From NCBI GenBank assembly GCA_026195275.1, contig JAPHQU010000001.1, positions 77,712 through 141,711 of the forward strand: a stretch of 64,000 bases of DNA, given 5' to 3'. Numbering within the stretch: position 1 is the stretch's first letter; each line of letters starts with the position of its first letter. This DNA comes from Minisyncoccota bacterium. Its GTDB lineage: Bacteria; Patescibacteriota; Minisyncoccia; Phycocordibacterales; JABMNX01. A program made the position numbers and the translations under genes. The notes beneath the pieces were generated by a model. The model was given only the letters and a program-made list of their open reading frames with translations, was not told the DNA's origin and ran no database searches. Below, piece after piece: positions 3,697 to 61,795 of the stretch.

Positions 3697-3701
3697 AAAT
3701 A

Positions 3702-3734
3702 CGCCCGCAGCTTTGGCTGCGGGCGCTTCTGGTG
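3702..3734. terminator. intrinsic terminator hairpin CGCCCGCAGC-TTTG-GCTGCGGGCG between convergent recG and orf
   Basis: perfect 10-bp GC-rich stem immediately after recG stop. Confidence 0.5.
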
Positions 3735-3735
3735 C

Positions 3736-4065
3736 CTACATTCTCCACGAGCGCTCATGGAGAAAATAGAGGATACCAAAGGTGAGATGCATAACGCCGC
3801 CGACGAGCATAGTCCACGACAAACTGAGACCGTTCGCCAAATAGAGTCCGCATGGCATAACCAGCATCGATCCGAACCATGCTATTAAAATCATCGCCGC
3901 GCCATCTTGGTAATACTCCCCTGTTTCCTCATCAAACACATTCGCAATGGCGGGGATAAACCATGTCACCCACTGTAAAAGCAGGATGGAGGCGTACTTC
4001 ACGGAAAGTCCCAGATGCCGAATCGGCGCAACGGGAGAAATCCGAGGTCCAATTTGAATATACAT
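3736..4065 (-). CDS. hypothetical small membrane protein
   Basis: 109-aa ORF, ATG at 4065, 3 predicted TM segments; no recognisable motif. Confidence 0.4.
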   Translation of the reverse strand: MYIQIGPRISPVAPIRHLGLSVKYASILLLQWVTWFIPAIANVFDEETGEYYQDGAAMILIAWFGSMLVMPCGLYLANGLSLSWTMLVGGVMHLTFGILYFLHERSWRM

Positions 4066-4176
4066 AACCTGGCTCCTTCAGACTGTTTCTGCGGACAGGC
4101 TATCACACAGGACTCTAAAAAGCCACTCGCATACTCTCGGGCTCGATATGCATAACAATAAGAAAACGCCCTTGGA

Positions 4177-4437
4177 TTACACCAAGGGCGTTTTGATAAA
4201 AACATAGAGCGTGCCAGACATGAGATAAAAACCAACCATGATCGCGCAAAGTGATGGCACCGATGTCACAAACGAGAGGACCAGGAGGAGTGAGGTAATC
4301 ATTCCATAGAGCATGAGAATGCCCACTACGTCAGCCTTAAGGAGCTCATCGATATTTTTGTTTTTAATGTCTCCGATTGCGAAGACAATCCACGCAATAA
4401 GCACCTTGGAGGTCTTGAAGATCAAGTGTCTGTTCAT
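4177..4437 (-). CDS. hypothetical small membrane protein
   Basis: 86-aa ORF, ATG at 4437, two hydrophobic helices; stop embedded in terminator hairpin AAAACGCCCTTGG-ATTACA-CCAAGGGCGTTTTG. Confidence 0.4.
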   Translation of the reverse strand: MNRHLIFKTSKVLIAWIVFAIGDIKNKNIDELLKADVVGILMLYGMITSLLLVLSFVTSVPSLCAIMVGFYLMSGTLYVFIKTPLV

Positions 4438-4589
4438 GCGTCTTCCTTTCTCTTTGGCGTGTATCTAGTCGTGAAAATACCACATATTTCTATATATAGC
4501 AATACCTCTTATAACACGACATGCGCGCTATAGTGACGGGAGTATGAGCTTACAAATGAGTAAACAAGAAGTGCTCTTGTGGTAAACCT

Positions 4590-4612
4590 AGGACCGCCAG
4601 GATATAACATTC
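4590..4612 (-). repeat. degenerate tRNA-derived fragment (variable-loop/T-stem-like GGCGGTCCTAGG)
   Basis: aggaccgccaggatataac resembles the reverse complement of the anticodon-stem/variable-loop region of the adjacent tRNA (ggaccgccaagatataagc). Confidence 0.3.
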
Positions 4613-4661
4613 GTGGGATTGGTTCACTCGGTCAAAATAAAGTAATAATCTCAGATTTGTG

Positions 4662-4735
4662 AGCGTACCAGGATTTGAACCTGGGACCGCGGAGATATAT
4701 TTCATATATTCTCTACATTCGAGTGAACTGCAAAC
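4662..4735 (-). pseudogene. tRNA 3'-half remnant (variable loop + T arm + acceptor 3' strand) fused to an AT-rich hairpin; no acceptor 5' strand or D arm
   Basis: minus-strand RNA ...GAGAAUAUAUGAAAUAUAUCUCCGCGGUCCCAGGUUCAAAUCCUGGUACGCUCA copies CGGUCCCAGGUUCAAAUCCUGG of the intact tRNA 75 nt upstream; no GAGCGUA partner for the 3' acceptor strand. Confidence 0.45.
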
Positions 4736-4740
4736 ATTTG

Positions 4741-4814
4741 TCCGTCCTCCAGGATTTGAACCTGGGACCGCCAAGATATAAGCTTGGTGCTCTAACCAAC
4801 TGAGCTAAGGACGG
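4741..4814 (-). tRNA. tRNA with anticodon UAU (AUA-decoding tRNA-Ile2-like); C1-G72 acceptor
   Basis: revcomp CCGTCCT-TA-GCTC-AGTTGGTTA-GAGC-A-CCAAG-CTTATAT-CTTGG-CGGTC-CCAGG-TTCAAAT-CCTGG-AGGACGG-A folds as canonical cloverleaf; anticodon loop CUUAUAU gives UAU. Confidence 0.7.
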
Positions 4815-4912
4815 AATGCAAGAACTATACCGTAAAGTTGGACTTCTTTGAAGCTCTCATCGTCTGTGCTACAGTGGCATCAGTTTTGTTCCAATGAACC
4901 GAGGAAAATGAC

Positions 4913-5242
4913 ATGCTTTACCGAATCGCAAAGTTGGTTATGACCAGCTACTCGATCATTGGGTCTCTTCTTGGGGCTCTCGTCGGATTCGTCATCTTTT
5001 TGGTGATCTACATCCTTCCGCTTCTCGCTTTCATCATCAACCTTTGCTGGACGCCAGTCATCGCTATCCGTGCATTCGGGCGTCTCGGGAAATATGGGGT
5101 TCCCTTTGGGGAAACATGGCGCAACGAGATCCGCGAGACCAAGAAAGCTTGGCGGGACGTCGTTGAAGGCTTCCATTTCATCTTTTGCGAAGCTCCGCAA
5201 AACATCTTCGACAATCTCCGCCGCACGCTCAGTGCTGCCTAG
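4913..5242 (+). CDS. hypothetical small membrane protein
   Basis: 109 aa, RBS GAGGAAAA 5 nt upstream of ATG, two TM helices; followed by bidirectional terminator. Confidence 0.5.
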   Translation: MLYRIAKLVMTSYSIIGSLLGALVGFVIFLVIYILPLLAFIINLCWTPVIAIRAFGRLGKYGVPFGETWRNEIRETKKAWRDVVEGFHFIFCEAPQNIFDNLRRTLSAA

Positions 5243-5255
5243 CCGGCGACAACGT

Positions 5256-5290
5256 AAAAGGGCCAGCATCCGCTGGCCCTTTCTTTTGTT
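5256..5290. terminator. bidirectional intrinsic terminator GGGCCAGC-ATCC-GCTGGCCC + TTTCTTTTG
   Basis: perfect 8-bp GC stem between convergent orf4913 and ftsH. Confidence 0.6.
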
Positions 5291-5293
5291 TGC

Positions 5294-7282
5294 CTATTCG
5301 CTGTGTTCGATATCCTCTTTTTTCTTCGGGGTGATGCCGTTTGCGATGAGGAGTTTTTCAAATTCATCGCGTTCAAGCGTCTCTACCTTAACGAGCTCCT
5401 GCGCGATCGCGTCGAGTGCACCGCGGTGTTTGGTGAGGATGTCCTCTGCCTTCTTATACGCATCGTCAATTATTTTGTGCACCTCGGCATCGATCTCCGC
5501 TGAGACCTTCTCGGAGTACTCTTTTCCGTCGATACCGGAGCCCATGAGCGCGCGACCACCCTCTCCCTCAAGCGCGACCGGCCCGATCTTATCTGACATA
5601 CCGTATTTGGTCACCATGTTGCGCGCGAGCGCAGTGAGCACCTGGAGGTCATTCGATGGACCAGTCGTCACATCATCAAAAACCATCTGCTCAGCGATGT
5701 ACCCACCAAGCGTCGTCGCTATATCATCGAGAAACTCTTTCTTTGACTGCATCCTCCGCTCATCAAACGGGAGCTTGAGTGTGTAGCCTGCAGCGCGACC
5801 ACGCGAGATGATCGAGATCTTGTGTACCGGGTCAGCGTACGGCAACACGCTTGAGACAAGTGCGTGCCCCGCTTCATGGTACGCGGTGATCTCCTTTTCT
5901 TTTGTATTCAAAACATGACTCTTGCGCTCTGGGCCGAGCATCACCTTCTCGATTGCGCGAATGAGGTCGTACTGAGTCACCTTCTTGCGATTCTCACGTG
6001 CCGCCAAAATCGCACCTTCGTTCATGAGTGAGTAGAGGTCGGCCCCCGAGAAACCAGGCGTACGCTCGGCGATCACGGTAAGGTCAACGTCTGAGTAGAG
6101 TGGCTTCTTGCGCGCGTGGATCTTGAGGATTGCTTCACGGTCAGAGCGGTCCGGCAGGTCAACAGTCACCCGGCGGTCAAATCGCCCCGGGCGAAGGAGT
6201 GCAGGGTCAAGGACGTCCGGGCGGTTGGTCGCCGCCATCACGATCACCTTTTCATTCGGCTCAAATCCATCCATCTCCACAAGGATCTGGTTGAGCGTCT
6301 GCTCGCGCTCGTCATTACCACCCCCGACTCCTGTGCCACGCACACGCCCCACTGCATCAATCTCGTCGACAAAGATGATCGCCGGGGCGGACTGCTTCGC
6401 GAGCTTGAAGAGATCGCGTACACGAGATGCTCCAACGCCGACGAACATCTCGACGAACTCTGAACCGGAGATCGAAAAGAACGGCACGCCAGCTTCACCT
6501 GCGACCGCGCGCGCGAGCAAGGTCTTCCCGGTTCCCGGTGCACCCATGAGGATAATCCCCTTCGGGATTTGCGCGCCAATCGCGATAAACTTCTTTGGGT
6601 TCTTAAGAAAATCAACAATCTCAACAAGTTCTTCTTTCGCTTCCTTTGCACCGGCAACATCTTTAAACGTTACTTTCTGGCTCTGGTCATTCGGGTCAAT
6701 GATGCGCGCCTTTGATTGCCCGAATGAGAATGCTTGCATGCCGGCGCCTTTCACCTGCCGTGAGAGGTACCATATGAAGAATGCGATGAGGAATATTGGG
6801 ATGAGGAAAGGCGCAAGTGAAAAGAACCAGAATTTAAACCCACTCGGGTCTTTCACTTCAACACTCACCTCTCCCAACTCATCGTGAGTGACGCCATAGT
6901 TGGCAAGCGTCTCGGTGAGTGCGGTATTAGCTTCTTTCTTCGACTCTTTCTCAGTAGGCTCCTCACCCTCCTCGGCAACATACGTGGCTACCACTCTCTC
7001 GCCACTTACCACAATCGAAGAGACTTCTCCTGCCTGTATATCTCGCGCAAGCTCAGAGATAGGGATGTTTTTGGTCCCCTCTTCGCGACCAACAATGAAT
7101 GAGTATGTGCTCACCAAAATAAGGAGGAGGAGGAGTGTGCTGAGCAGGTTCGCCCAGAACTGCTGACGTTCAGGGAGTTTTGGCATCTCGGACGAAGGCT
7201 TCTTCTCACCCTTCTTCGGATTTTGTCCGGTGTTTTTTGCGGCTTTTTTCTTACCGCTGTGATTTTTTCCAAAGAGGTCCAT
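5294..7282 (-). CDS. ftsH: ATP-dependent zinc metalloprotease FtsH (Lys-rich N-terminal extension)
   Basis: ORF 5294..7444; start set at ATG 7282 ([13 protein letters not shown]...) preceded by TATAAT 12 nt upstream; TM helices, AAA Walker [12 protein letters not shown], Zn site HEAGHA. Confidence 0.9.
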
Positions 7283-7832: not shown

Positions 7833-8242
7833 GGGGATGATCGGCTTCGACAATGAAGATATCTTATCTATGTGCAAGGGAGCAGACCAGAACTGCTTAA
7901 AAAGCTGGAACACAATACGTGCAAAGAAATCTGCACTTGGAATGCTTTCACCTTTCCAGATGAAAAACTTCCAGTTCGCTTACGCACAAGCCTAAGCGAC
8001 CATCAGTACGTTTGACGTCCGATATGACGACACTGGTGTAACCCCAATCGGTCTAGGGTGCGCGATTGCCTCGACGCACATCTGAAACTAAGAGACTCGA
8101 CGTGATGTGATTTTGTTTGTTTCAAACACACCACGTTCAAACAGATCCTGATCTTGTATCTGGGTCAAAAAGACAAACTAGCCCTCTGTAGAATCATTTA
8201 TGAGACCTTTCTTGGACGCGGATTCGATTTCCGCCATCTCCA
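7833..8242 (+). ncRNA. ssrA: transfer-messenger RNA (tmRNA, SsrA); tag reading frame ends ...KNFQFAYAQA*
   Basis: 5' GGGGAUGAUCGGCUUCGAC matches tmRNA 5' consensus; 3' end GCGGA-UUCGAUU-UCCGC-CAUCUCC-A gives T arm and acceptor pairing with 5' GGGGAUG including a G3-U70 pair; internal ORF in frame ending GCT TAC GCA CAA GCC TAA (7978..7995); gene directly downstream of smpB. Confidence 0.8.
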
Positions 8243-8310
8243 CATTTATACCAATATGGACCAAAACAGACCGCTTTGTACCAATATGTACAGGTGGTTT
8301 TTTGGTACTC

Positions 8311-9522: not shown

Positions 9523-10029
9523 ATGACCATAGAAGCCCAAGAAACCTCCGTCCACCCAAACGTAGGACAAGTACTCGATGTCATTGAGGATGTTGTCTCT
9601 GTTATGGAATGGTCTCACGAACGACGGGGAGATGAACTCTCGACTCAAGTACCAGGAAGGTGGTGCGACTACGCTGTCCAATTCACATGGATTGGTCAAA
9701 TGGAGTTCCTTGCCTTCTTTTGCGTGCTCGATATGCGCATCGAACCCAATCGAATGAAAGAAGCGTATGAGCTTGTCGGTATATCAAACGACAAGACATT
9801 ACTCGGGTCTTTTACGATCTCGGCTGAAGATCGACTTCCACTCTTTCGGATCGTCGTTCCGATGCGAGGACAGAAAAGAGTGAGTCCTGAGCAAATCAAG
9901 GATATGCTCAATGAAACACTGGCCGAATGTGAGCGATTCTACCCAGCATTCCAATTCGTCATCTGGGGTGGCAAGAACCCACAAGAAGCGATCCGTGATG
10001 CCATGATTGAAGTTGAAGGCACCGCATAA
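9523..10029 (+). CDS. hypothetical cytoplasmic protein, possibly YbjN/T3SS-chaperone-like fold
   Basis: ORF 9520 starts GTG; ATG at 9523 with RBS AAAGGAGAGAGG; about 168 aa acidic protein; family call is weak pattern resemblance only. Confidence 0.55.
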   Translation: MTIEAQETSVHPNVGQVLDVIEDVVSVMEWSHERRGDELSTQVPGRWCDYAVQFTWIGQMEFLAFFCVLDMRIEPNRMKEAYELVGISNDKTLLGSFTISAEDRLPLFRIVVPMRGQKRVSPEQIKDMLNETLAECERFYPAFQFVIWGGKNPQEAIRDAMIEVEGTA

Positions 10030-10560: not shown

Positions 10561-11631
10561 ATGACACGAAACACGCTCACTCGATTCTCAACAGTACAGA
10601 ACACGCTCTTCTTCGGTTTACTCGCTCTAGGTACCGGTGCATTTATCTGGCTGATTAACGATTTTATTATGCCCGTCTTCTGGGCGATTGTACTCGCGAT
10701 TGTCTTTTATCCGCTACAGCACCGGTGGGCGGTCTTTGTACGGAACCGTACGGTCGCCTCACTGCTCACCATCTCTTCAGTGATCCTTGTTATCTTTGTT
10801 CCTCTTTGGATTATTGGCGGGCTCGTAGTCGAAGAATCAATCAGCACCTATGACCGTTTTGCAACCGGTAGTTTTGAAGCGTCTCGATCAAGTATTGTGA
10901 ATCAAGCGCTTGAGCAGTTGAACAAGATTGATGGCGTTTACCTTGATGAGGAAGGTGTCAAAGAGAAACTCTCGTCGTTTGTTCAGGTGGTAAGCGCGTG
11001 GTTCGCGCGCGAAGCATTTGAACTTGGGCAAGCGACCTTTGGTGTGATGGTAAGCTTCTTGCTTATGCTCTACCTGCTCTTCTTTATGCTCCGTGATGGA
11101 CCGAGAATTGGTCGCGCAATCGAGCACACACTCCCGCTTGGCAATGAACGAGAGGAGGCTCTCTTCACTAACTTTGCGCGAATCACACGCTCCATCTTCA
11201 AAGGGACACTCGCGATTGCACTCATCCAAGGTGCTATCGGTGGTGCGCTCTTCTGGATTGCCGGCATTGATGGCGCGCTTCTCTGGGGTGTGGTGATGAC
11301 ACTCCTCTCAATCATCCCGGCGATCGGTCCGAGTATTGTCTGGCTACCAGCTGGTGTCATCCTACTGCTCTCAGGCTTTATGTGGCAAGGAGCGGTTGTC
11401 CTTGTTGGTGGTGTTGTTATCATTAGTCTTGTCGATAATATACTACGCCCACTCCTCGTAGGCAGAGACGTGAAGATTCCTGATGCAATCATTCTCCTCT
11501 CCACAATTGGTGGTCTTTCTGTCTTTGGAATTACCGGTATTATTATTGGTCCGGTCATTGCCGGGTTCTTCCTCTCCCTATGGAAGATCTTTGAGGTCGA
11601 TTACCGAAAAGACCTTGAAACACAAGGCTAA
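10561..11631 (+). CDS. AI-2E family transporter (PerM/YdiK-like permease)
   Basis: 356 aa, about 8 TM helices, family-typical GALLWGVVMTLLSIIPAIGPSIVWLPAG segment. Confidence 0.7.
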   Translation: MTRNTLTRFSTVQNTLFFGLLALGTGAFIWLINDFIMPVFWAIVLAIVFYPLQHRWAVFVRNRTVASLLTISSVILVIFVPLWIIGGLVVEESISTYDRFATGSFEASRSSIVNQALEQLNKIDGVYLDEEGVKEKLSSFVQVVSAWFAREAFELGQATFGVMVSFLLMLYLLFFMLRDGPRIGRAIEHTLPLGNEREEALFTNFARITRSIFKGTLAIALIQGAIGGALFWIAGIDGALLWGVVMTLLSIIPAIGPSIVWLPAGVILLLSGFMWQGAVVLVGGVVIISLVDNILRPLLVGRDVKIPDAIILLSTIGGLSVFGITGIIIGPVIAGFFLSLWKIFEVDYRKDLETQG

Positions 11632-13393: not shown

Positions 13394-14806
13394 CTAAAAG
13401 AGCTCAACGCGACTTCCCTTTTCAGGGACGGTGGCATTCACGCCAAGTTCATCACGCAAACGCTGTGTGAGAAAGAGTGACGCCTTTGGCTCCCCCATCA
13501 CGACAAATGCCTGCTTGAGTGTGTCTTTTGCGTCAGCAACAAAGTCGATGAGGTGGTCGGAGTCTTTGTGCGCAGAAAAACCGTCGATAGCGCGCACCTC
13601 GGCACGCACAAAAACTTTATCACCGTAGATCGTTACCTCCTTTGCCCCCTCTCTGAGTCGTCTACCAAGCGTCCCGGCACCCTGGTAGCCAATGAAGAGT
13701 AGCGTGTTCTTCGAGTCAGAGAGAATGTGCTTCTCATGCTCGAGTACACGCCCCCCAACCGACATCCCCGAACCGGCAATGATGATCTTCGGACCCGGCG
13801 TCTTCATAATGACTCTTGACTCGGGGACAGTGCGTGTCTTCTTAAAAAGTGGAAACTGGAAGATGTTGTCTCCTTCTCTAATTTCCTTTCTTACCTCATC
13901 TTTAAAATCATCGGAATAACGGGTATATATATCCGTCGCGCGTATCGCAAGCGGCGAATCAAGAAACACAGGGATTTCAGGTACAACCCCATCCTCAATA
14001 AGATTATTGAGAAAATAGAGAAGGACCTGCGTCCGATCAAGCGAGAATGCAGGAATGAGCAATGTTCCTTTCCGAGAGATCGTATCCTTAATAGCTTCTA
14101 CAAGGAGCCCCTCCCGATCATCTTTCCCTTCGTGATTACGGTCACCATAGACACTCTCCATCACCAAGTGTGTTGCTCCTTTAATACTCTCTGTGTCCGG
14201 AAGAAGTGGTGATGGGGAGTTGCCAAGATCTCCAGTAAAGACTATCTTCTTTCCGTCGTAAGCAAATTCAAGTATTGCTGAGCCAAGGATGTGCCCGGCA
14301 TCCTTTAGGGTTACGGAGAAACCTTGCGGAAACGATTGTTCTTCGTGATACCTGATTGTTTCCCACTGATTGAGCGCACGGTCGATGTCTTCTCTCTCAT
14401 ACATAATCGGCTTACCTCGCTCACGCGCCTCATGCGCAAGAATCGTAAGCGCATCTTCGAACATCACCCTTGCCAAGTCGCGCGTTGCCGGTGTTGAGTA
14501 TATCTTCCCACGGAAGCCGTCGCGCACAAGCTTAGGGATACGCCCAATATGGTCCGCGTGTGCGTGCGTCACAAAGAGTATGTCGATTGATGCCGGATCA
14601 TACGGAAACGGGTCGTAGTTGCAATCGTGACAGTACTGCTCGCCTTGCACGAACCCACAGTCAACGAGAATCCGCGCGTCCTCAAACTCAAAGAGAAAGT
14701 TTGCCCCGGTCACGCCACCGGCGCCGCCGTAAAACGTGATCGCTGCTTTATTCACTTCTGTATCTTTATTTTGTTCCATATTTTGTTCCATTTTGGTTAC
14801 TACCAT
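13394..14806 (-). CDS. MBL-fold / beta-CASP family ribonuclease (RNase J/CPSF73-like)
   Basis: 470 aa; ITFYGGAGGVTGANFLFE...ILVDCG...THAHADHIG metallo-beta-lactamase motifs plus beta-CASP C-terminal region. Confidence 0.8.
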   Translation of the reverse strand: MVVTKMEQNMEQNKDTEVNKAAITFYGGAGGVTGANFLFEFEDARILVDCGFVQGEQYCHDCNYDPFPYDPASIDILFVTHAHADHIGRIPKLVRDGFRGKIYSTPATRDLARVMFEDALTILAHEARERGKPIMYEREDIDRALNQWETIRYHEEQSFPQGFSVTLKDAGHILGSAILEFAYDGKKIVFTGDLGNSPSPLLPDTESIKGATHLVMESVYGDRNHEGKDDREGLLVEAIKDTISRKGTLLIPAFSLDRTQVLLYFLNNLIEDGVVPEIPVFLDSPLAIRATDIYTRYSDDFKDEVRKEIREGDNIFQFPLFKKTRTVPESRVIMKTPGPKIIIAGSGMSVGGRVLEHEKHILSDSKNTLLFIGYQGAGTLGRRLREGAKEVTIYGDKVFVRAEVRAIDGFSAHKDSDHLIDFVADAKDTLKQAFVVMGEPKASLFLTQRLRDELGVNATVPEKGSRVELF

Positions 14807-15185
14807 ATATGGTAGTAAAAAATATTACCGCGAAAATCGTACCGAGTGCATCCATAGCAAGATCGGTGGTGGTGTCGAGTACATAATTGTTCTCAATCGG
14901 GATCCCCGCAAGCACTTCAAACACCTCCCACCCGACCCCAACAATAACAATCGCCCCTCCGGCAACAAGGAGCGTCTTGGTCAGACTACGTGCGACGCAG
15001 ATGTAACCAGACTCAAAGAAAAGCCAGAGCGATGCGAGCCCAACAAGAAGCCCGCCAAGGAAATGCATCATGGTATCAAACCACGAGTACGTCCAGTAGA
15101 GATAGAACTCAATTGCCGACGCATGGAGCACCGCGATCATCACAAGTAGCATGAACCAGAGTATGAAGAGTGGATGTTTGTGCAT
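14766..15185 (-). CDS. hypothetical membrane protein (4 TM; possibly DUF457/YdjM-like)
   Basis: ATG at 15185 preceded by TATACT 6 nt upstream (leaderless-type); overlaps downstream gene by up to 41 nt. Confidence 0.45.
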   Translation of the reverse strand: MHKHPLFILWFMLLVMIAVLHASAIEFYLYWTYSWFDTMMHFLGGLLVGLASLWLFFESGYICVARSLTKTLLVAGGAIVIVGVGWEVFEVLAGIPIENNYVLDTTTDLAMDALGTIFAVIFFTTIYGSNQNGTKYGTK

Positions 15186-15272
15186 AGAGTAAGTATAAAG
15201 TTGAAAGTCAAAAGTTGAAAGTGATACTGTATTGATCTCTTGGTGTCTGTATTCAAGAGAAGAACAAAAACA

Positions 15273-15533: not shown

Positions 15534-16139
15534 CTACTCTAAAATCCCATCAATATTAACGTCGTAGAGGATCTCGTCTGAAATGAGGCGGTAGCTGATA
15601 AGCTCACCCTCCACAAACCAGTGCTTGATCTCATTCTCTGCCTCCTCAGCTGAGCCTGATGCATGCACAATGTTACGCACCGCACGCCCATCGCCGTCTG
15701 CCATGCGGTATGAATCGAGGACGTAGTCACCGCGAATGGTCCCAACGTCTGACGAGAGTGGTTCCGTCGAGCCAACAATCTTGCGTACCAACTCTGCTGC
15801 GTGCGCTCCCTGGAGCACCATGAGCACGACCGGCCCTGAGGTCATGTACTTCTTGAGGTTCTCAAGTATCTTCGCAGTGACTTCAAGCGGGTCTTCTGAA
15901 GGTGGAGTGAGCCCTTTCTTCTTGTATGACTCGATAGCTTTCTCGCCGGTAACTGTGCGCCACGATGGATCAAGAGTATAGTGCGCCTCTACTTGACCTG
16001 CCTCAGGAACAGCCATCTTAAGCGCCACCATTTTGAGTCCGACACGTTCAAAACGTGAAATAACTTCTCCAATGAGTGAGCGCTGTACGCCATCCGGTTT
16101 GATAATAACGAGTGTTCTCTCTTTGCTGTGTTTTGACAT
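15534..16139 (-). CDS. ndk: nucleoside diphosphate kinase, long form (about 200 aa with insertions)
   Basis: ERTLVIIKPDGVQR and NIVHASGSAEEAENEIKHWF match NDK signatures incl. catalytic His; TATACT 6 nt upstream of ATG. Confidence 0.8.
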   Translation of the reverse strand: MSKHSKERTLVIIKPDGVQRSLIGEVISRFERVGLKMVALKMAVPEAGQVEAHYTLDPSWRTVTGEKAIESYKKKGLTPPSEDPLEVTAKILENLKKYMTSGPVVLMVLQGAHAAELVRKIVGSTEPLSSDVGTIRGDYVLDSYRMADGDGRAVRNIVHASGSAEEAENEIKHWFVEGELISYRLISDEILYDVNIDGILE

Positions 16140-16255
16140 AAGAACAAGTATAAAGTCAAAAGTTTAAAGTTGAAAGTGGAAAACGGATTATTCTATGGTA
16201 TAGTTTTTACAGAATCATCGTAGCAATTCTGCTTTGAGAACTAATGGAGGACGTC

Positions 16256-17295: not shown

Positions 17296-17892
17296 TTAGT
17301 CGATATTGAGTGCGGCACGGATGTCTCTCTGCACATCTTCGACCGACTGATCGCCATTGATATCATGGACATAATACCCATCCTTTTCGCGGAGATACTC
17401 AATCGACGGGAGTACTTCTGTACTATACCAAGTGAGACGTTTGGAAACGTACTCGTCGTCAAGGTCGTCTTTTCTTCCGCGATTCCGTAAACGGTCACGG
17501 CAAATATCTTCAGGGACATCGAGAATAATCGCGTGCATCTGTGGCGCACCGAAGAATTCGAGTGCTTCTTCAAGCATCTTAAATTCCGGCAGGAGGCGCA
17601 CCCCATCGAGCATGAGGAATTCTTTCCCTGTATAGTTCGCAATAAGAAAACTCGAAAGAAGCCAAATTGGAATAAAAGATGGCAAGAGATTCCCCTCATT
17701 GATGATACCTGCCGCACGCTGTGCTATTGCACCCGGATGCTCTTTTATGAATGAGCGAATTTCTTCACCACCGTCAAAAGAGAGCATTGGTGTCTGTGGG
17801 TACGAAGTCTCAATATGCGCTTTGAGCACATCTGCCTGAGTACCCTTGCCAGCTCCTGAGGGTCCAAAGAAGATAATTGTTTTGGGTTGCAT
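17296..17892 (-). CDS. adk: adenylate kinase
   Basis: P-loop GPSGAGKGTQA; TATACT 5 nt upstream of ATG. Confidence 0.9.
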   Translation of the reverse strand: MQPKTIIFFGPSGAGKGTQADVLKAHIETSYPQTPMLSFDGGEEIRSFIKEHPGAIAQRAAGIINEGNLLPSFIPIWLLSSFLIANYTGKEFLMLDGVRLLPEFKMLEEALEFFGAPQMHAIILDVPEDICRDRLRNRGRKDDLDDEYVSKRLTWYSTEVLPSIEYLREKDGYYVHDINGDQSVEDVQRDIRAALNID

Positions 17893-18022
17893 GAAATCAG
17901 TATACGGGTAATGGCTAAAAGTTGAAAGTGGATGCGACAGAATCCACTAGGATCGCCAAAATCGAATGAAGAACGAAGAGGCTAAACCTGCTCGCTTAAA
18001 ACACGAAAAAGCAGATACATGT

Positions 18023-21910: not shown

Positions 21911-21952
21911 ATTTAGATATAGTCGCAAGCGATAGCGCGCTTACTAGATCTT

Positions 21953-22017
21953 ACACCCCGTGAAATGCATCACTTTGGTGATGCACCCGCGCCCTGCGGT
22001 GCGGGATTTCACTGGGG
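21953..22017 (-). repeat. structured three-helix element, copy A1 (42 nt upstream of rpsN start on the transcribed strand)
   Basis: outer stem CCCCGTGAAAT / ATTTCAC(T)GGGG enclosing hairpins GCATCAC-TTTG-GTGATGC and CCCGCGCC-CTGC-GGTGCGGG; homologous to 35038..35104 and 22039..22099. Confidence 0.6.
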
Positions 22018-22038
22018 TTCGGTGATTCTATACTCCGA

Positions 22039-22099
22039 CCCCGATGAAATCTTCCGCCTTAGGGCGGAAGCGTGTCGCTTCGCGACACATCTCACGGGG
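22039..22099. repeat. structured three-helix element, copy A2 (opposite orientation to A1)
   Basis: CCCCGATGAAAT-[CTTCCGCC-TTAG-GGCGGAAG]-[GTGTCGC-TTC-GCGACAC]-ATCTCACGGGG; internal hairpin sequences nearly identical to copy B at 35038..35104. Confidence 0.6.
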
Positions 22100-22215
22100 T
22101 TAGTTCAGCATTGTCGTCCCGACTGAGATGTCGCGACTCGGTGCTTCACTAAAAAAGCGTTCTGTGACGCTCGGCCTATAGTATCAGGCTGACCGTCCAA
22201 AGTCAATTCTACCCT

Positions 22216-34928: not shown

Positions 34929-35037
34929 ATATAGTCTATAGCTTATCGTCTTTACCGTGGTACGTAAATGGCGATTTGCATAAAACGAAGTAAACTGGTA
35001 TATTCTGTAGCACTTGATTGAGTGGTGGTGTGAAGAT

Positions 35038-35104
35038 CACCCCAGTGGAATCCTCCGCAGTAGTGGCGGAGGTGTGCCGCCAAGGCGACACATTTCACGG
35101 GGTG
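35038..35104 (+). repeat. structured three-helix element, copy B, 40 nt upstream of rpmB start codon
   Basis: CACCCCAGTGGAAT-[CCTCCGC-AGTAGTG-GCGGAGG]-[TGTGCCGCC-AAG-GCGACACA]-ATTTCACGGGGTG; same architecture and outer-stem sequence as 21953..22017 (reverse complement) and internal hairpins nearly identical to 22039..22099. Confidence 0.6.
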
Positions 35105-35144
35105 TCAGACCTTCTCATTCGCTCCGCTCATAACAAGGTCTAAC

Positions 35145-35387
35145 ATGGCAAAAGAATGTCCAATCACAAAGAAGACCTCTAAGGTTGCTGGCGGCTACAG
35201 CAACCGTACTCGTGCTACCCAATTCAACCCAACCGGCAAAAAGCGTCGCCAGGTGAACCTCCAGAAAAAGACTATTTTCGTCCCTGAGATTGATAAGAAA
35301 GTGACTGTCAAAGTATCAACCAAAGGAATCCGCACGATCAACAAGAACGGCGCATACAAAACCCTCAAGAAAGCAGGACTAATTTAG
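35145..35387 (+). CDS. rpmB: 50S ribosomal protein L28
   Basis: MAKECPITKKTSKVAGGYSNRTRATQFNPTGKKRRQVNL...VSTKGIRTINK matches L28. Confidence 0.85.
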   Translation: MAKECPITKKTSKVAGGYSNRTRATQFNPTGKKRRQVNLQKKTIFVPEIDKKVTVKVSTKGIRTINKNGAYKTLKKAGLI

Positions 35388-35420
35388 AAAGTTGAAGATG
35401 GAAAGCAGAAAGTAGAGACT

Positions 35421-35458
35421 AAACCCCGGCGCCATAGGCGCCGGGGTTTATCTTTTGG
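35421..35458. terminator. bidirectional terminator ACCCCGGCGCC-ATA-GGCGCCGGGGT + TTATCTTTTGG
   Basis: 11-bp perfect GC stem after rpmB, overlapping stop of convergent ComEC-MBL gene. Confidence 0.6.
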
Positions 35459-36314
35459 TGACTGAAAAGCCGTCTGATTCAAAGAGAATTGTTCCGACAT
35501 CCGCTGTGTTCACAGTTTCAATTCCAAGCGCATTGAAAAGACCTATCACTTCTTTATGCGGATGTCCGTAACGATTATCCTCCCCAGCAGAGATGACCGC
35601 AACTTGCGGGCTAACCGCGCGTACAAATGACTCATCACTCGATGTTTTTGAACCATGATGTCCTGCTTTGAGTACGTCGCTCTCCAAACTCCTGCTGTTG
35701 AGGTAGACAAGATACCGCTCAATAGTCTTCTGTGCGTCCCCGGTGAGCATAAACTCTGTCTCGCCGTACACAATACGGATGATGACCGAGCCAGAGTTCG
35801 TCTCAAGATGAGCGACATCACGGTCAGGGAAAAGTATGTCAGCGTACACCCCGCTCACCTCGTCGAGGACAACACGCTGTCCGCGGCGCGCAAGCGCCGC
35901 GGTGACATTGCTCCTTGAGACGGTCTTCTGCAGCTCTTCATATACTGCTGTGTCGTTGAATACACCCGAGTGGAGATATTGAGAGACTTCGTAGCGCGAA
36001 AGCACCTCAATCAGCCCGGCGATGTGGTCTTTGTCGGGATGTGTTGCGAGAACTACATCGATTGACCGGTCGCCCCACGGCATGACTTGTGAGAGTTCAC
36101 GGAGTACCCCCGTGTTCGACCCGCCATCAACGAGCATTTGGTTGCCATTTGGCGCTTCGATGTATATTGCATCGCCTTGCCCAACATCAAGGAACGCAAC
36201 AGTGAGCACCCCCACCCGATCTGTTGCCGCAAGCGTTGCAGACCAAATAAAAAAGTTGAAAAGAATGAATATCAGAACAACGAGTGAGCGTGAGTAGAGC
36301 TGTATAGACTTCAT
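35448..36314 (-). CDS. ComEC/Rec2-type metallo-beta-lactamase domain protein (stand-alone, N-terminal membrane anchor)
   Basis: VDGGSN...VVLATHPDKDHIAGL...MLTGD...VLKAGHHGSKTSS...AVISAG as in the C-terminal MBL domain of ComEC; separate gene from channel domain at 37355..38860. Confidence 0.7.
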   Translation of the reverse strand: MKSIQLYSRSLVVLIFILFNFFIWSATLAATDRVGVLTVAFLDVGQGDAIYIEAPNGNQMLVDGGSNTGVLRELSQVMPWGDRSIDVVLATHPDKDHIAGLIEVLSRYEVSQYLHSGVFNDTAVYEELQKTVSRSNVTAALARRGQRVVLDEVSGVYADILFPDRDVAHLETNSGSVIIRIVYGETEFMLTGDAQKTIERYLVYLNSRSLESDVLKAGHHGSKTSSDESFVRAVSPQVAVISAGEDNRYGHPHKEVIGLFNALGIETVNTADVGTILFESDGFSVTKR

Positions 36315-38868: not shown

Positions 38869-39279
38869 CTACTCCCCGCGGTCCATAGCTTCATTCGCGA
38901 GTCGGTCCGCTTCTGCGTTCTCCGCGCGCGGTATATGCGTGAAGGTAACATGTGGCATGTCTTTGAGCATCTCTTGGATCCGGTTGTATTGATCGCGAAG
39001 TGTGGGCATCTTAATACGGTAGTTACCATTGAGCTGCTCGACCACGAGTTGGCTATCAAGCTTAAAAAGTATCTTTTCCTCTGCAAATCCGAGATCTTTC
39101 GCGGTATGGAGTCCAAGGATAACCGCTTCATACTCCGCCCAGTTGTTTGTCTGCACACCAAGAAACCGCGAGGTCTCTTCAATAACCTTCCCGTCATCCC
39201 CCACAATAACAACACCGGCTCCAGCCGGCCCTGGGTTATTTCGCGCACCTCCGTCGGTATAGATCGTGATGTGTTTCAT
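38869..39279 (-). CDS. rnhA: ribonuclease HI
   Basis: start MKHITIYTDGGARNNPGPAG (ATG 39279); DDE residues in YTDGG, WAEYEA, LDSQLV, HIPRAENAEADRLA. Confidence 0.9.
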   Translation of the reverse strand: MKHITIYTDGGARNNPGPAGAGVVIVGDDGKVIEETSRFLGVQTNNWAEYEAVILGLHTAKDLGFAEEKILFKLDSQLVVEQLNGNYRIKMPTLRDQYNRIQEMLKDMPHVTFTHIPRAENAEADRLANEAMDRGE

Positions 39280-43335: not shown

Positions 43336-44118
43336 TCACTTCACGCCACCTTGGGCAAATTTAAGTATTTCATTAAAACTCTTTGCCGACAGGCTCGCAT
43401 GACCAACCAGAAGCCCGTCTACCTCGCCTTCCGCGAGAAGCGTGGCCACATTCCCCGGCTCAACTGATCCGCCATAGATAACCGGTAACCGAAACGCCAC
43501 CTGCTTCTTATAAAGCTCAGTAATGATCTTCCTTATAAAGAGAACGGTTTCGTGTAATTCATCGGGCTGCATAGCAGCTCCCTCGCCTTTACCGATTGCC
43601 CAGATTGGTTCGTACGCGATAACGATGCGTACGAGTTGCCGTTCGCTCACCCCTTTGAGTGCCTTCGTGATCTGACTTCGCAGGAAAGTAAGATGTGTAC
43701 CCTCACGATGATCACGGTCGGACTCACCGACACACACTACTGGTGTAATGCCCGCCTTAAGTGCGGCAAGCACCTTTCGATTAACCGCCTGGTCGTCCTC
43801 TCCCTGCGCCCTTCGCTCTGAGTGTCCCAAAATGACATACGTTGCTCCGATGTCTTTGAGCATTTTTGGACTCACCTCACCTGTATATGAACCTTTCTCC
43901 TCCCAGAACATATTTTGTGCACTAAGGAGAATACGATGACCACGATAGAGTGATGAGAGAATCGGAAGATATATTGACGGCGGTGCAATGACTGTCTGCA
44001 CCTTCGCAAGTTTGCTCGCCATCTGTTTTACCTCAGCAAAAAGCCGTTTTGCATCAGCCGCGCTTTGCGGGTTCATCTTCCAATTGGCAATAATGAGTTT
44101 TTTCCGTACTTTTGACAT
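43336..44118 (-). CDS. tpiA: triosephosphate isomerase
   Basis: start MSKVRKKLIIANWKMN (ATG 44118, TACAAT 8 nt upstream); catalytic contexts NWKMN, GHSERR, AYEPIWAIGTG-like. Confidence 0.9.
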   Translation of the reverse strand: MSKVRKKLIIANWKMNPQSAADAKRLFAEVKQMASKLAKVQTVIAPPSIYLPILSSLYRGHRILLSAQNMFWEEKGSYTGEVSPKMLKDIGATYVILGHSERRAQGEDDQAVNRKVLAALKAGITPVVCVGESDRDHREGTHLTFLRSQITKALKGVSERQLVRIVIAYEPIWAIGKGEGAAMQPDELHETVLFIRKIITELYKKQVAFRLPVIYGGSVEPGNVATLLAEGEVDGLLVGHASLSAKSFNEILKFAQGGVK

Positions 44119-56236: not shown

Positions 56237-56361
56237 GACCCGTGTCTTGTTTGTCATCGACGACGAGACGGAGGCATATTGCGAGCCTGCGAGCAAAGCC
56301 GAGCCCGGGCAGGAGGTTCTTAGTGAAGATGAGTGCGAAGCACGAAATCTGAGCTTAGAAA

Positions 56362-56392
56362 CCTGACGCTGTCGATGAGGTGCTCAAATAAG
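56362..56392 (+). repeat. DR1: displaced copy of clpP 3' end (encodes ...DAVDEVLK*)
   Basis: cctgacgctgtcgatgaggtgctcaaataag; 29/31 identical to DR2; translates to clpP C-terminal heptapeptide VDEVLK + stop; followed by own terminator 56424..56455. Confidence 0.6.
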
Positions 56393-56462
56393 TTTAAAGT
56401 AGAAAGTTAGAAGTTATAAAGCAAAAACCTTACGATATATCGTAAGGTTTTTAGATTGGTGG

Positions 56463-59964: not shown

Positions 59965-60109
59965 TAGGTAAAGAACAGCTTATTGGAAACACGCGCATTT
60001 AATATCTGTGATTCTTGGAGTTCGCTGGGCGTCAGGTTTCTAAGCTCACCGTTCGCACTTCGTGCTCCGCTTCACAATCGAGCGCGAAAGCAAAATAGTT
60101 TGCTTTCTA

Positions 60110-60607: not shown

Positions 60608-61795
60608 ATGCCACTTTTCCCACTCATCCAGGTCATTGTAAGCCGTGTTGTTATTGGTATCATCGCAATCCTCGCCACACTTGGACTCGGATCGGTTTCT
60701 GAACCAATCGCCACAAACACCACGAATCAAACCGACGCACCTCAGGAAGTGGCCACTGAAGAGCCTGAGGCACCTCAGGAGGCCGAGAAGGATCCACAGA
60801 AGACGGTTGAGACTCCTGAAGAGCCTACTGCGAAAGAAGGGACCCCAACCACTACCCCACTTGAGACCGTGCAGGGACTCACAGAAGAGCCGGATGAAGC
60901 AATAATTACAGAAACCGCAACCTCGACCCACAAAGAGCCGCTCACTTTCGCAGAGATTAACACCAACACCACAGAAGCACTGGTTAACATCCTCTGCTCG
61001 CAAAATGTTGCAACAGCAGTAACGCCGATCACCGGAAGCGGTGTCATTATCGACCCGCGCGGAGTGATCATCACCAACGCACATGTCGCTCAGTTCTTTC
61101 TGCTTAAAGACTACCCCGTCGAAGACGCACTCTCGTGCATCATCCGCACCGGAAGCCCCGCACGCCCCATGTACACCGCAGAGCTTCTTTACATACCGCC
61201 AATCTGGATCTCAGAGCACGCCGAGGACATTACCGATAGCGAGCCGACTGGGACCGGCGAGAATGACTATGCTTTCTTGCGCATTACCGGCCGCACCAGC
61301 CCTGATGCAGGAGGCCTCCCCACCTCGTCCTCTTACTTACCAATGGATGCCGAAGCAACGATCGAGACAGGTGCACCAGTGCTTGTAGCAGGGTATCCTG
61401 CAGGCTTCCTTGGCGGTATCTCCGTCCAAAAAGACCTCTACTCAGTCTCGAGCATCACAACAATTGGGGAGCGCTTTACTTTTAACACAAACACAATAGA
61501 TCTCTTCTCGACCGGCGGCACTGTTGTCTCGCAAGGCGGCTCTTCCGGTGGTGCGGTCGTCTCAGCAAAGGAGAAGCTCGTCGGTGTTATCGTAACCAGC
61601 ACTAATGGCGACACGACCGCCGAACGTGACCTGCGCGCGATCAGTGTTGGACACATCAACCGCAGCCTTTTTGAGTACAGCAACACCACAATAGATGCGC
61701 TTCTCTTCGGAGATGTAGCACTTCGTGCCCGCCTCTTCAATATCGGCACCGCGCCGGCGCTGACCGATATCTTGGTGAACTCACTCAATAATTGA
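60608..61795 (+). CDS. trypsin-like (S1/S1C) serine protease with N-terminal TM anchor and Pro/Thr/Glu-rich linker
   Basis: ATG 60608 with RBS AAGGA; catalytic triad contexts TNAHV, NDYAFLRI, GGSSGGAVV. Confidence 0.75.
   Translation: MPLFPLIQVIVSRVVIGIIAILATLGLGSVSEPIATNTTNQTDAPQEVATEEPEAPQEAEKDPQKTVETPEEPTAKEGTPTTTPLETVQGLTEEPDEAIITETATSTHKEPLTFAEINTNTTEALVNILCSQNVATAVTPITGSGVIIDPRGVIITNAHVAQFFLLKDYPVEDALSCIIRTGSPARPMYTAELLYIPPIWISEHAEDITDSEPTGTGENDYAFLRITGRTSPDAGGLPTSSSYLPMDAEATIETGAPVLVAGYPAGFLGGISVQKDLYSVSSITTIGERFTFNTNTIDLFSTGGTVVSQGGSSGGAVVSAKEKLVGVIVTSTNGDTTAERDLRAISVGHINRSLFEYSNTTIDALLFGDVALRARLFNIGTAPALTDILVNSLNN

Follow-up and report, generated by a model that had tools for sequence, protein, structure and literature searches.

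The leader of rpmB, the gene for ribosomal protein bL28, carries a structured element in the 64,000-nucleotide (nt) stretch analysed here, which we call the window and on whose + strand numbering its coordinates are given. This element belongs to a new family of dispersed structured repeats that have been co-opted as leaders and that appear neither in Rfam nor in the literature we searched. The rpmB feature is probably one copy of a portable leader unit that acts in cis on the mRNA and is dispersed in Paceibacteria/Parcubacteria of the candidate phyla radiation (CPR), with a mosaic build like that of repetitive extragenic palindromic (REP) sequences, bacterial interspersed mosaic elements (BIMEs) or miniature inverted-repeat transposable elements (MITEs). 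The structure of the unit is conserved, the set of genes behind it is promiscuous, it stands in sense orientation directly against the ATG, its insertions are lineage specific, and it lies downstream of a conserved promoter.

The rpmB copy folds as a three-way junction (3WJ) in which stem P1 encloses the hairpins P2 and P3, and it is followed by a fourth hairpin, P4, that runs up to the start codon (Table 1). The junction has a minimum free energy (MFE) of −36.9 kcal/mol (z = −4.9). No linker separates P1 from P4, so that the AUG leaves the same helix junction as the first nucleotide of P1. A covariance model (R1) built from the three copies in the window, and run against the 64 kb with filters off, returned exactly these copies at 80–90 bits (E-values of 1e-18 to 1e-21); their reverse strands scored 31–33 bits and the remainder of the 64 kb no more than 16 bits. 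Pairing, fold and covariance match confirm the structured element that the original prediction had described in the rpmB leader, and the model agrees with its count of one copy at rpmB and two near rpsN. A further stem abutting the ATG is present in both leaders, as it had proposed. It had also put the element ~40 nt from the ATG at rpmB and 42 nt at rpsN; the spacings are indeed similar, and measure 41 and 44 nt.

The idea of a shared, uncatalogued cis element likewise stands. The covariance models of Rfam 15 gave no match at gathering thresholds or at E ≤ 10, with only noise of the miRNA type, and the searched literature describes neither the sequence nor such a leader in the CPR. The candidates of Eckert and Weinberg 2020 (PMC7247131) include no L28 leader. 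A terminator scan flagged the hairpin 3′ of rpmB and the one in the rpsN leader (Table 1) and none of the units.

We scanned contigs of one genome per species with a strict pattern (CCCCRRTGRAATC-N30-55-CATYTCACGGGG) and found three sites, all in the CPR: two in Candidatus Yonathbacteria and one in a metagenome-assembled genome (MAG) labelled Saccharibacteria. The genes after these sites are a small membrane open reading frame (ORF), a pilC-type gene and rpsL. A slightly looser pattern matched at least 120 stretches in JGI metagenomes; a viral origin was rejected, as this pattern gave 0 matches in IMG/VR viral contigs. Two populations can be told apart among the matches listed. In class 1, a hairpin of ~34–45 nt stands behind the junction, and its last base is nt −1 of the ATG. 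In class 2, P1 stems with small loops form tandem or nested arrays in other contigs (e.g. L063). A sense ORF of at least 80 aa lies within 200 nt in 44 of the 120 unique matches listed, and 29 of these ORFs start 33–45 nt after P1. Units occur singly before genes or as head-to-head pairs inside operons.

From the matches listed, we collected 44 non-identical class-1 leaders, those with a 3WJ and a start-codon hairpin. Their P1 has the form ACCCC-A-GUGAAAU/AUUUCACGGGGU and is invariant in sequence across hosts of 29% to 52% GC. The inner region folds as exactly two adjacent hairpins in 40 of the 44, with unrelated sequences that range from GC-rich to AU-rich; the junction linkers are variable and only 0–2 unpaired nt long, and the hairpin loops vary as well. 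Covariation was judged by the pairing of arms (MAFFT misaligns the variable hairpins, and the covariance-model alignment mixes both strands): each 5′ arm was paired with the 3′ arm of its own copy and with those of the other copies, and the difference was assessed by permutation. Cognate arms paired better in P2 (−9.3 vs −3.6 kcal/mol for non-cognate arms), P3 (−7.8 vs −2.1 kcal/mol) and P4 (−7.1 vs −3.3 kcal/mol), with a permutation p ≤ 5e-5 in each case; the P4 arms were set by position alone, and the P2 and P3 arms were taken from each copy's own MFE fold, which biases those two comparisons toward cognate pairing. P2, P3, and P4 covary across the family, and P1 is invariant. The loop of P4 is conserved and C/U-rich (UCGCUUCGCUC...UUAAAA), with a class-1 motif TCRYT-n-YRYTC that includes the window copies, and the last paired base of P4 is nt −1 of the start codon.

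A left arm, U, precedes P1 in the rpmB copy, and a motif from its region, GAGCGAAGYGAG, is found again in other copies. U pairs with 35116–35130 in the MFE fold of 35012–35150 (RNAfold), and a pairing between U and the P4-loop arm (L) is predicted by RNAfold for the rpmB copy and L036. We rejected this U:L pairing as a conserved switch, as the duplex energies of cognate and non-cognate arms are alike (p = 0.13) and several copies have no U.

Comparison with relatives provides both filled and empty sites. In seven syntenic loci with an M50-peptidase gene and rpmB (L125–L131; L28 identity of 80–96%), model R1 found the 3WJ in none of the seven. The closest relative, L129 (L28 96% identical), has the promoter in common (ATTTGCAT-N17-TATATT), continues with CTCTACACTT-TAT-ATG, and has its ATG 13 nt after the −10 box. 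In the alignment, the window reads CACTT, 129 nt, ATG, where L129 reads CACTT-TAT-ATG. Since the block is missing in the closest relatives, the rpmB copy is a recent 129-nt insertion and no conserved leader of the gene; since it was inserted between the native promoter and the ATG, it is transcribed as a 5′ untranslated region (UTR). We had also tried a −10-like TAnAnT inside P4 as the sole promoter, which would leave the junction untranscribed, and rejected it on two grounds, the covariation of the P4 arms and the presence of the native rpmB promoter on the 5′ side of the insertion. The spacer between the M50-peptidase gene and rpmB is 29–77 nt in five other relatives and 227 nt in L126 (Kaiserbacteria). 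The rpmB leader of the latter (9775–10000) contains a P4-like hairpin with the same loop motif, which follows a different, 16-bp long-range stem (CCCGTCCCATTTTTGC...GCAAAAATGGGGCGGG) enclosing ~130 nt. The presence of a P4-like module behind a different stem indicates that the modules are separable.

The other two copies in the window, A1 and A2, lie head to head between rplE and rpsN, 16–17 nt apart. A2 matches A1 and the rpmB copy on the + strand and is thus inverted relative to A1 and to the rplE-rpsN transcript. With both tails, the pair covers 21911–22130 (~220 nt), between a terminator-like hairpin and the rpsN ATG. The 3WJ is absent from both rplE-rpsN loci of relatives (L132 and L133), and, judged from these loci, the rpsN pair is a second lineage-specific insertion. 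An equal head-to-head pair occupies the whole rplW-rplB spacer (224 nt) of L076.

The genes downstream of the class-1 leaders were identified by Pfam. Ribosomal protein (r-protein) genes follow 11 of the 44 and represent eight different proteins: L28 (two, the second rpmB copy with a unit being in L114), S14, S12 (two), L29, L10 (two), L3, L27, and L35. Other translation or RNA genes are those for EF-G (three), EF-Tu, class-I LysRS, NusB-NUDIX (two), and PNPase. Chaperones and proteases are represented by ClpB/C (two), ClpP, and DnaK, and DNA metabolism by SSB, Fpg (three), and RuvA; the remainder are glutaredoxin, GlmS, DUF167 (two), PilC (two), a PilB-type ATPase, PrgI, and several small unknowns. 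Further copies stand before the genes for L2 and DnaG. With ~25% r-protein genes and ~43% translation- or RNA-related genes among the 44, the set is enriched without being specific.

Shine-Dalgarno-like tetramers precede only 12 of the 70 long ORFs in the window, and ~11 of its genes have a −10-type hexamer (mostly TATACT) 4–9 nt before the ATG, a leaderless signature that suggests widespread leaderless mRNAs in this Paceibacteria genome. Among the units, 17 of 42 class-1 leaders have a strong −10-like hexamer 5–7 nt before the A of ACCCC. A segment of ~45 nt that precedes P1 is conserved as well, and 15 different gene contexts share its consensus TTGTTTAGAAAATTAAC-GAGCGAAGTGAG-TATAAT. Based on this hexamer and the conserved upstream segment, many units seem to bring their own promoter, with transcription starting at P1; at rpmB, the native promoter takes this role.

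In the mechanism we propose, the unit consists of the upstream ~45-nt segment with a −10-like TATAAT 6–7 nt before P1 (in many copies), the 3WJ, and a P4 that ends at the start codon, and it would serve as a portable leader by acting in cis on the mRNA. Owing to the junction, the 5′ end or its vicinity would be stably folded; this fold may shield the end, or a common factor may recognise it through the invariant P1. P4 may supply or gate the region of translation initiation. Such a unit would serve a broad set of housekeeping genes while spreading like REP/BIME or MITE-type repeats.

Several observations weigh against this mechanism. P4 sequesters nt −1 to −12, which is expected to hinder initiation, and the same genes do without the element in relatives, where it is therefore dispensable. 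A2 and the antisense copy of L076 stand before no gene. There is no target-site duplication at the rpmB site when the window is compared with L129, and no transposase was found, although no systematic search for one was made. G·U pairs number 14 in the sense folds and 39 in the antisense folds, and for 42 of 43 leaders the antisense strand gives the more stable fold. This excess is due largely to the P4 region being G-poor, and the test gives no positive support for a sense RNA; the asymmetry of G·U and A·C pairs, which we had tried as proof of a sense RNA, came out reversed. Lastly, the transcript 5′ ends and any processing are inferred only.

Some of these observations suit a different account, in which the unit is a selfish DNA repeat of the kind seen with REP sequences and their associated tyrosine transposases (RAYTs), with IS200/IS605-PATE elements or with MITEs. 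Its hairpins would then matter only in single-stranded DNA, where a transposase or recombinase would recognise them; this enzyme would bind at the invariant P1, extrahelical base included, and any effects on neighbouring genes would be incidental. We regard this as unlikely overall, though as a serious candidate. Recent, lineage-specific insertion fits it, as do the recurrence of head-to-head pairs of ~220 nt (as in BIMEs and REPINs), the constancy of P1 over so wide a range of host GC content, the arrays and nested P1-type hairpins in other contigs such as L063, the better folding and more numerous G·U(T) pairs of the complementary strand, and the resemblance of the U and L arms to imperfect terminal inverted repeats. 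However, in each of more than 40 independent gene contexts the unit is in sense and its P4 ends exactly at the start codon, and we know of no transposition mechanism that explains such a placement. The missing duplication at rpmB and the transposase not found (in the absence of a systematic search) count against a selfish repeat too, as does the lack of the GTAG head of REPs. Moreover, the three copies of one genome share P1 but differ in compensated P2 and P3, which indicates long-term selection on structure rather than recent copying. A doubtful extension of the RNA side would make the unit a genome-wide portable translation-start module, in a phylum without Shine-Dalgarno pairing that prefers leaderless mRNAs. 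A conserved factor (the ribosome, NusB/S10 or an RNase) would recognise P1 and the P4 loop; the unit would recruit the initiation machinery to an internal AUG, or would be cleaved off to leave 5′-AUG mRNAs, and operon transcripts would be divided by head-to-head pairs into cistrons of separate stability. If true, bacteria would have here a new way to initiate on messages that are not leaderless, and the housekeeping genes of CPR bacteria would form a single post-transcriptional regulon. It is also conceivable, and in our view quite unlikely, that the unit is a Nus-factor leader, in which the P4 loop and 3′ strand form a BoxA beside the start codon that would tie translation and housekeeping genes in their expression to free NusB/S10, as in E. 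coli suhB. The consensus GCTC(C/A/G)TTAAAA stands 7–9 nt before the ATG and is similar to lambda nutL (CGCUCUUAAAAAUUAA) and Aquifex (GGCUCCUU) sequences, and two units precede nusB-like genes. Matches of at least 9/11 to GYTCTTTAANA, a gamma-proteobacterial consensus (PMC5725501), occur in 26 of 43 leaders and in ~7% of shuffles; in the same study, ~25% of boxA-associated gene functions are translation related, and BoxA can repress translation. The window copies nevertheless score only 8/11 (rpmB) and 6/11 (A1 and A2), half of the motif is base-paired in P4, and the invariant P1 is left unexplained. In L018, the one testable host, the BoxA-like GATTCTTTGACAA of the rrn operon upstream of 23S and the unit loop CGCTCATAAGAAA match weakly.

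Cleavage is at the centre of another account, in which the unit is a punctuation or processing element. It would be cut at its 3′ edge, or between paired units, so that longer transcripts would give rise to leaderless-type mRNAs with their first nucleotide at or close to the AUG, as happens through tRNA punctuation in mitochondria. The host's leaderless or short leaders without Shine-Dalgarno sites, the position of the unit exactly between the transcription start region and the AUG, the junction of P1 and P4 that brings the 5′ end and AUG together, the pairs between cistrons, and two junctions of L081 that start at a tRNA discriminator base, the RNase Z site, are all consistent with it. We find it distinctly unlikely because neither Rfam nor inspection revealed a likeness to known self-cleaving ribozymes or RNase P/Z substrates, units with their own −10 box need no processing to be leaderless, and the support is purely inferential. 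The original prediction had favoured an r-protein leader, with a possible zinc link, or a riboswitch-like regulator of the S14 and L28 genes. In favour of an autogenous or zinc-linked leader, a small r-protein gene stands behind two of the three copies in the window, and 11 of the 44 family members, with a second rpmB among them, likewise have an r-protein gene behind them. The original prediction had reckoned with the case that copies elsewhere would lack any association with r-protein genes, and this is not what we see: the ~25% share amounts to an enrichment, and it is the specificity for S14/L28 or zinc-ribbon proteins that falls away. Most copies precede unrelated genes, and this census largely refutes the idea; close relatives have no junction at rpmB and rpsN, and the P1 and loop motifs have no match with up to two mismatches in the 23S and 5S rRNA of L018, which speaks against mimicry of these two rRNAs there. 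Co-localisation with rpmE, rpmG, and rpmJ, raised in the same context, was looked for, and none of the 44 class-1 leaders stands before these genes. The window L28 has one Cys and no CxxC motif, and a zinc or Zur link was dropped on this and on the unsuitable gene set. An autogenous leader is thus a very improbable reading, and we are just as reluctant to credit a riboswitch for a global metabolite or ion. The layout would suit an aptamer with a hairpin that occludes the start site, and the alternative U:L pairing is predicted, but that pairing does not covary, the part that is conserved forms a regular helix, the loops show no conservation, and the downstream genes are not metabolically coherent. 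With only 0–2 unpaired, non-conserved nt in the junction, there is no obvious ligand pocket. Known ribozyme and riboswitch classes were rejected as well, with no match in Rfam and no core motif on inspection, as was an integron attC site, as the unit ends in ACCCCAG... and ...CACGGGGT and has no GTTRRRY core.

Among known systems, the portable leader unit resembles, in copy dynamics and pairing, the enterobacterial REP/BIME sequences and REPINs and the Correia and BOX elements. The former are extragenic palindromes of short length that are transcribed, carry an asymmetric bulge and reach many copies per genome; they often form inverted pairs with other conserved motifs between cistrons and, in the case of REP/BIME, affect mRNA stability. 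Multiple extragenic palindromes in inverted pairs are likewise found here, with three copies in 64 kb and pairs in the window and L076. The differences are that the unit starts with ACCCC and lacks GTAG, that no RAYT was identified (none was searched for), that the loop is expanded to two covarying hairpins to give a 3WJ, and that the unit is tied to the start codon in 5′ leaders, whereas REP/BIME lie in 3′ regions. The Correia elements (MITEs of Neisseria) and the pneumococcal BOX and RUP are also structured repeats of ~100–150 nt near genes that are co-transcribed as 5′ UTRs, with possible promoter-like hexamers, a modular build and filled/empty polymorphism between strains; the alignment of the window with L129 displays the same polymorphism. 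They share no sequence similarity with the unit, whose right end always abuts the ATG, and Correia elements have 26-bp terminal inverted repeats and a TA duplication, while the rpmB site has no duplication. The complementarity of the U arm and the P4 loop, which recalls such terminal repeats, is imperfect, missing in some copies, and not cognate specific.

The 5′ stabiliser stem-loops of ompA, ermC, and aprE and the “split RBS” hairpins of T4 genes 25 and 38 also place a stable structure at the very 5′ end or a hairpin directly before the start codon, but they are single-gene features, in contrast to a dispersed family of invariant sequence. BoxA leaders (rrn, lambda nut, and E. coli suhB; PMC5725501) share a GCUC-N-UUAA-type motif within ~10 nt of the start region, an association with translation-related genes and possible translational control; the motif of the unit is partly paired and a weak match in the window copies, and its large invariant 3WJ has no counterpart there. 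Autogenous r-protein leaders (S15, L20; Eckert and Weinberg 2020; PMC7247131) are structured RNAs directly upstream of their genes, some of them 3WJs, but each is tied to and conserved with one operon, whereas the unit is promiscuous and is gained or lost between close relatives.

The CPR (Patescibacteria) make up a large and almost uncultured share of bacterial diversity, with tiny genomes and few known regulators. In this group, the element is a widespread structured RNA or DNA module with an invariant 12-bp stem that is reused before dozens of essential genes. Should it act on the mRNA, it may show how genes are expressed without Shine-Dalgarno sites, and the genes behind it may form a global post-transcriptional regulon. 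As selfish DNA, it would represent a new family of repeats able to tolerate, or to exploit, insertion sites directly before the start codons of essential genes. Either way, it is a useful marker, and a warning that “r-protein leaders” seen in a single genome can be dispersed repeats.

Table 1. Coordinates of the rpmB leader and of the rplE-rpsN spacer in the window
Feature	Position	Strand	Basis or remark
Native rpmB promoter (TTTGCA/TTGCAT, 17–18 nt spacer, TATATT)	34975..35004	+	promoter scan; common to relatives without the element
129-nt block (left arm, 3WJ and P4), replacing TAT before the ATG	35016..35144	+	filled/empty alignment
Left arm U, GAGTGGTGGTGTGAAG	35020..35035	+	imperfect inverted copy of the P4 loop
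3WJ, rpmB copy (copy3)	35039..35103	+	pairing, fold, covariance model (89.1 bits)
P1 of the rpmB copy, ACCCCAGTGGAAT with ATTTCACGGGGT	35039-35051 with 35092-35103; bulged A at 35044	+	base pairing
P2 of the rpmB copy	35052-35072	+	CCTCCGC/GCGGAGG
P3 of the rpmB copy	35074-35091	+	GTGCCGC/GCGACAC
P4 hairpin of the rpmB copy	35104..35144	+	last nt is −1 of the rpmB ATG
P4 stem, AGACCTT/AAGGTCT	35107-35113/35135-35141	+	pairing beside the ATG
P4 loop motif TTCGCTCCGCTCA	35118-35130	+	sequence
BoxA-like GCTCATAACAA in P4	35126-35136	+	BoxA score 8/11
rpmB (bL28, 80 aa)	35145..35387	+	Pfam PF00830
Intrinsic terminator 3′ of rpmB	35420-35450	+	terminator scan
Copy A1 (3WJ 22018..21955; P4-type hairpin 21954..21911, ending at the rpsN ATG, 21910)	21911..22018	−	90.5 bits
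Copy A2 (3WJ 22038-22100; P4-like tail 22101-22130)	22038..22130	+	79.6 bits on +, 33.3 bits on −
Terminator-like hairpin of the rpsN leader	22172..22155	−	terminator scan; also in L133
Native rpsN promoter TTGACT-17-TACTAT	22206..22178	−	also in relative L133

Around the rpsN pair, an ATG with a 17-codon ORF (MSRLGASLKKRSVTLGL) follows A2 at 22131–22184 (+) and extends, in antisense orientation, into the leader of rpsN; it may be accidental or the vestige of a start. The rpsN promoter is followed at once by a hairpin with a T-run, an arrangement that L133 (4575–4625), which has no repeat, keeps directly before rpsN, and which may be a separate attenuator or leader for rpsN-rpsH. In the closest relative at this locus, L132, two Cys-rich ORFs (151 and 107 aa) are inserted between rplE and rpsN (1051–1939). 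They have no Pfam match and several CxxC motifs, and each has its own terminator and promoter. The window L28 is 100% identical to a Candidatus Pacebacteria MAG protein (NCBI), and its nearest named relatives are Kaiserbacteria.

Further forms of the repeat occur in other contigs. Dense hairpin arrays are found in L063 (1000–1900, −) and also in L082, L083, L088, L091, and L098, whose hosts are other organisms; their outer stems are the same or variants (CCCCAGTGAAAT/ATTTCACGGGG and CCCCAGTTAAAT/ATTTAACGGGG) with compensatory changes from G-C to U-A. In L081, 3WJs at 6249–6300 (+) and 11394–11445 (−) start at the discriminator base of tRNA-Ala and tRNA-Val genes, so that their 5′ ends would arise by tRNA 3′ processing. 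In L033 (8393–8470), outside class 1, a type IV pilin-like ORF has a start (…TG|FTLVEMMVVVAIIGIL) that overlaps with the 3′ arm of the junction.

Many first genes in the window have a TATACT-type hexamer, among them those at 14766–15185, 15534–16139, 17296–17892, 35448–36314, 38869–39279, 43336–44118, and 60608–61795. Direct repeats of 38 nt (AGAGTAAGTATAAAGTTGAAAGTCAAAAGTTGAAAGTG) lie at 15186–15223, 16141–16178, 17893–17930, and 56385–56422; on the − strand, they form a common promoter-like block (…TTGACTTTCAACTTTATACT…) directly before leaderless-type genes. The window also holds a 47-nt inverted repeat (56323–56369 and 60029–60075, 81% complementary and 3.7 kb apart), a second repeat pair (56543–56606/57228–57291), and a tmRNA gene at 7833–8245 (Rfam RF00023, 101 bits). 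In L018, the 23S rRNA gene spans 5.3 kb (1572–6879, −), a length that points to large insertions, and contains a tRNA-model match at 5063–5134.

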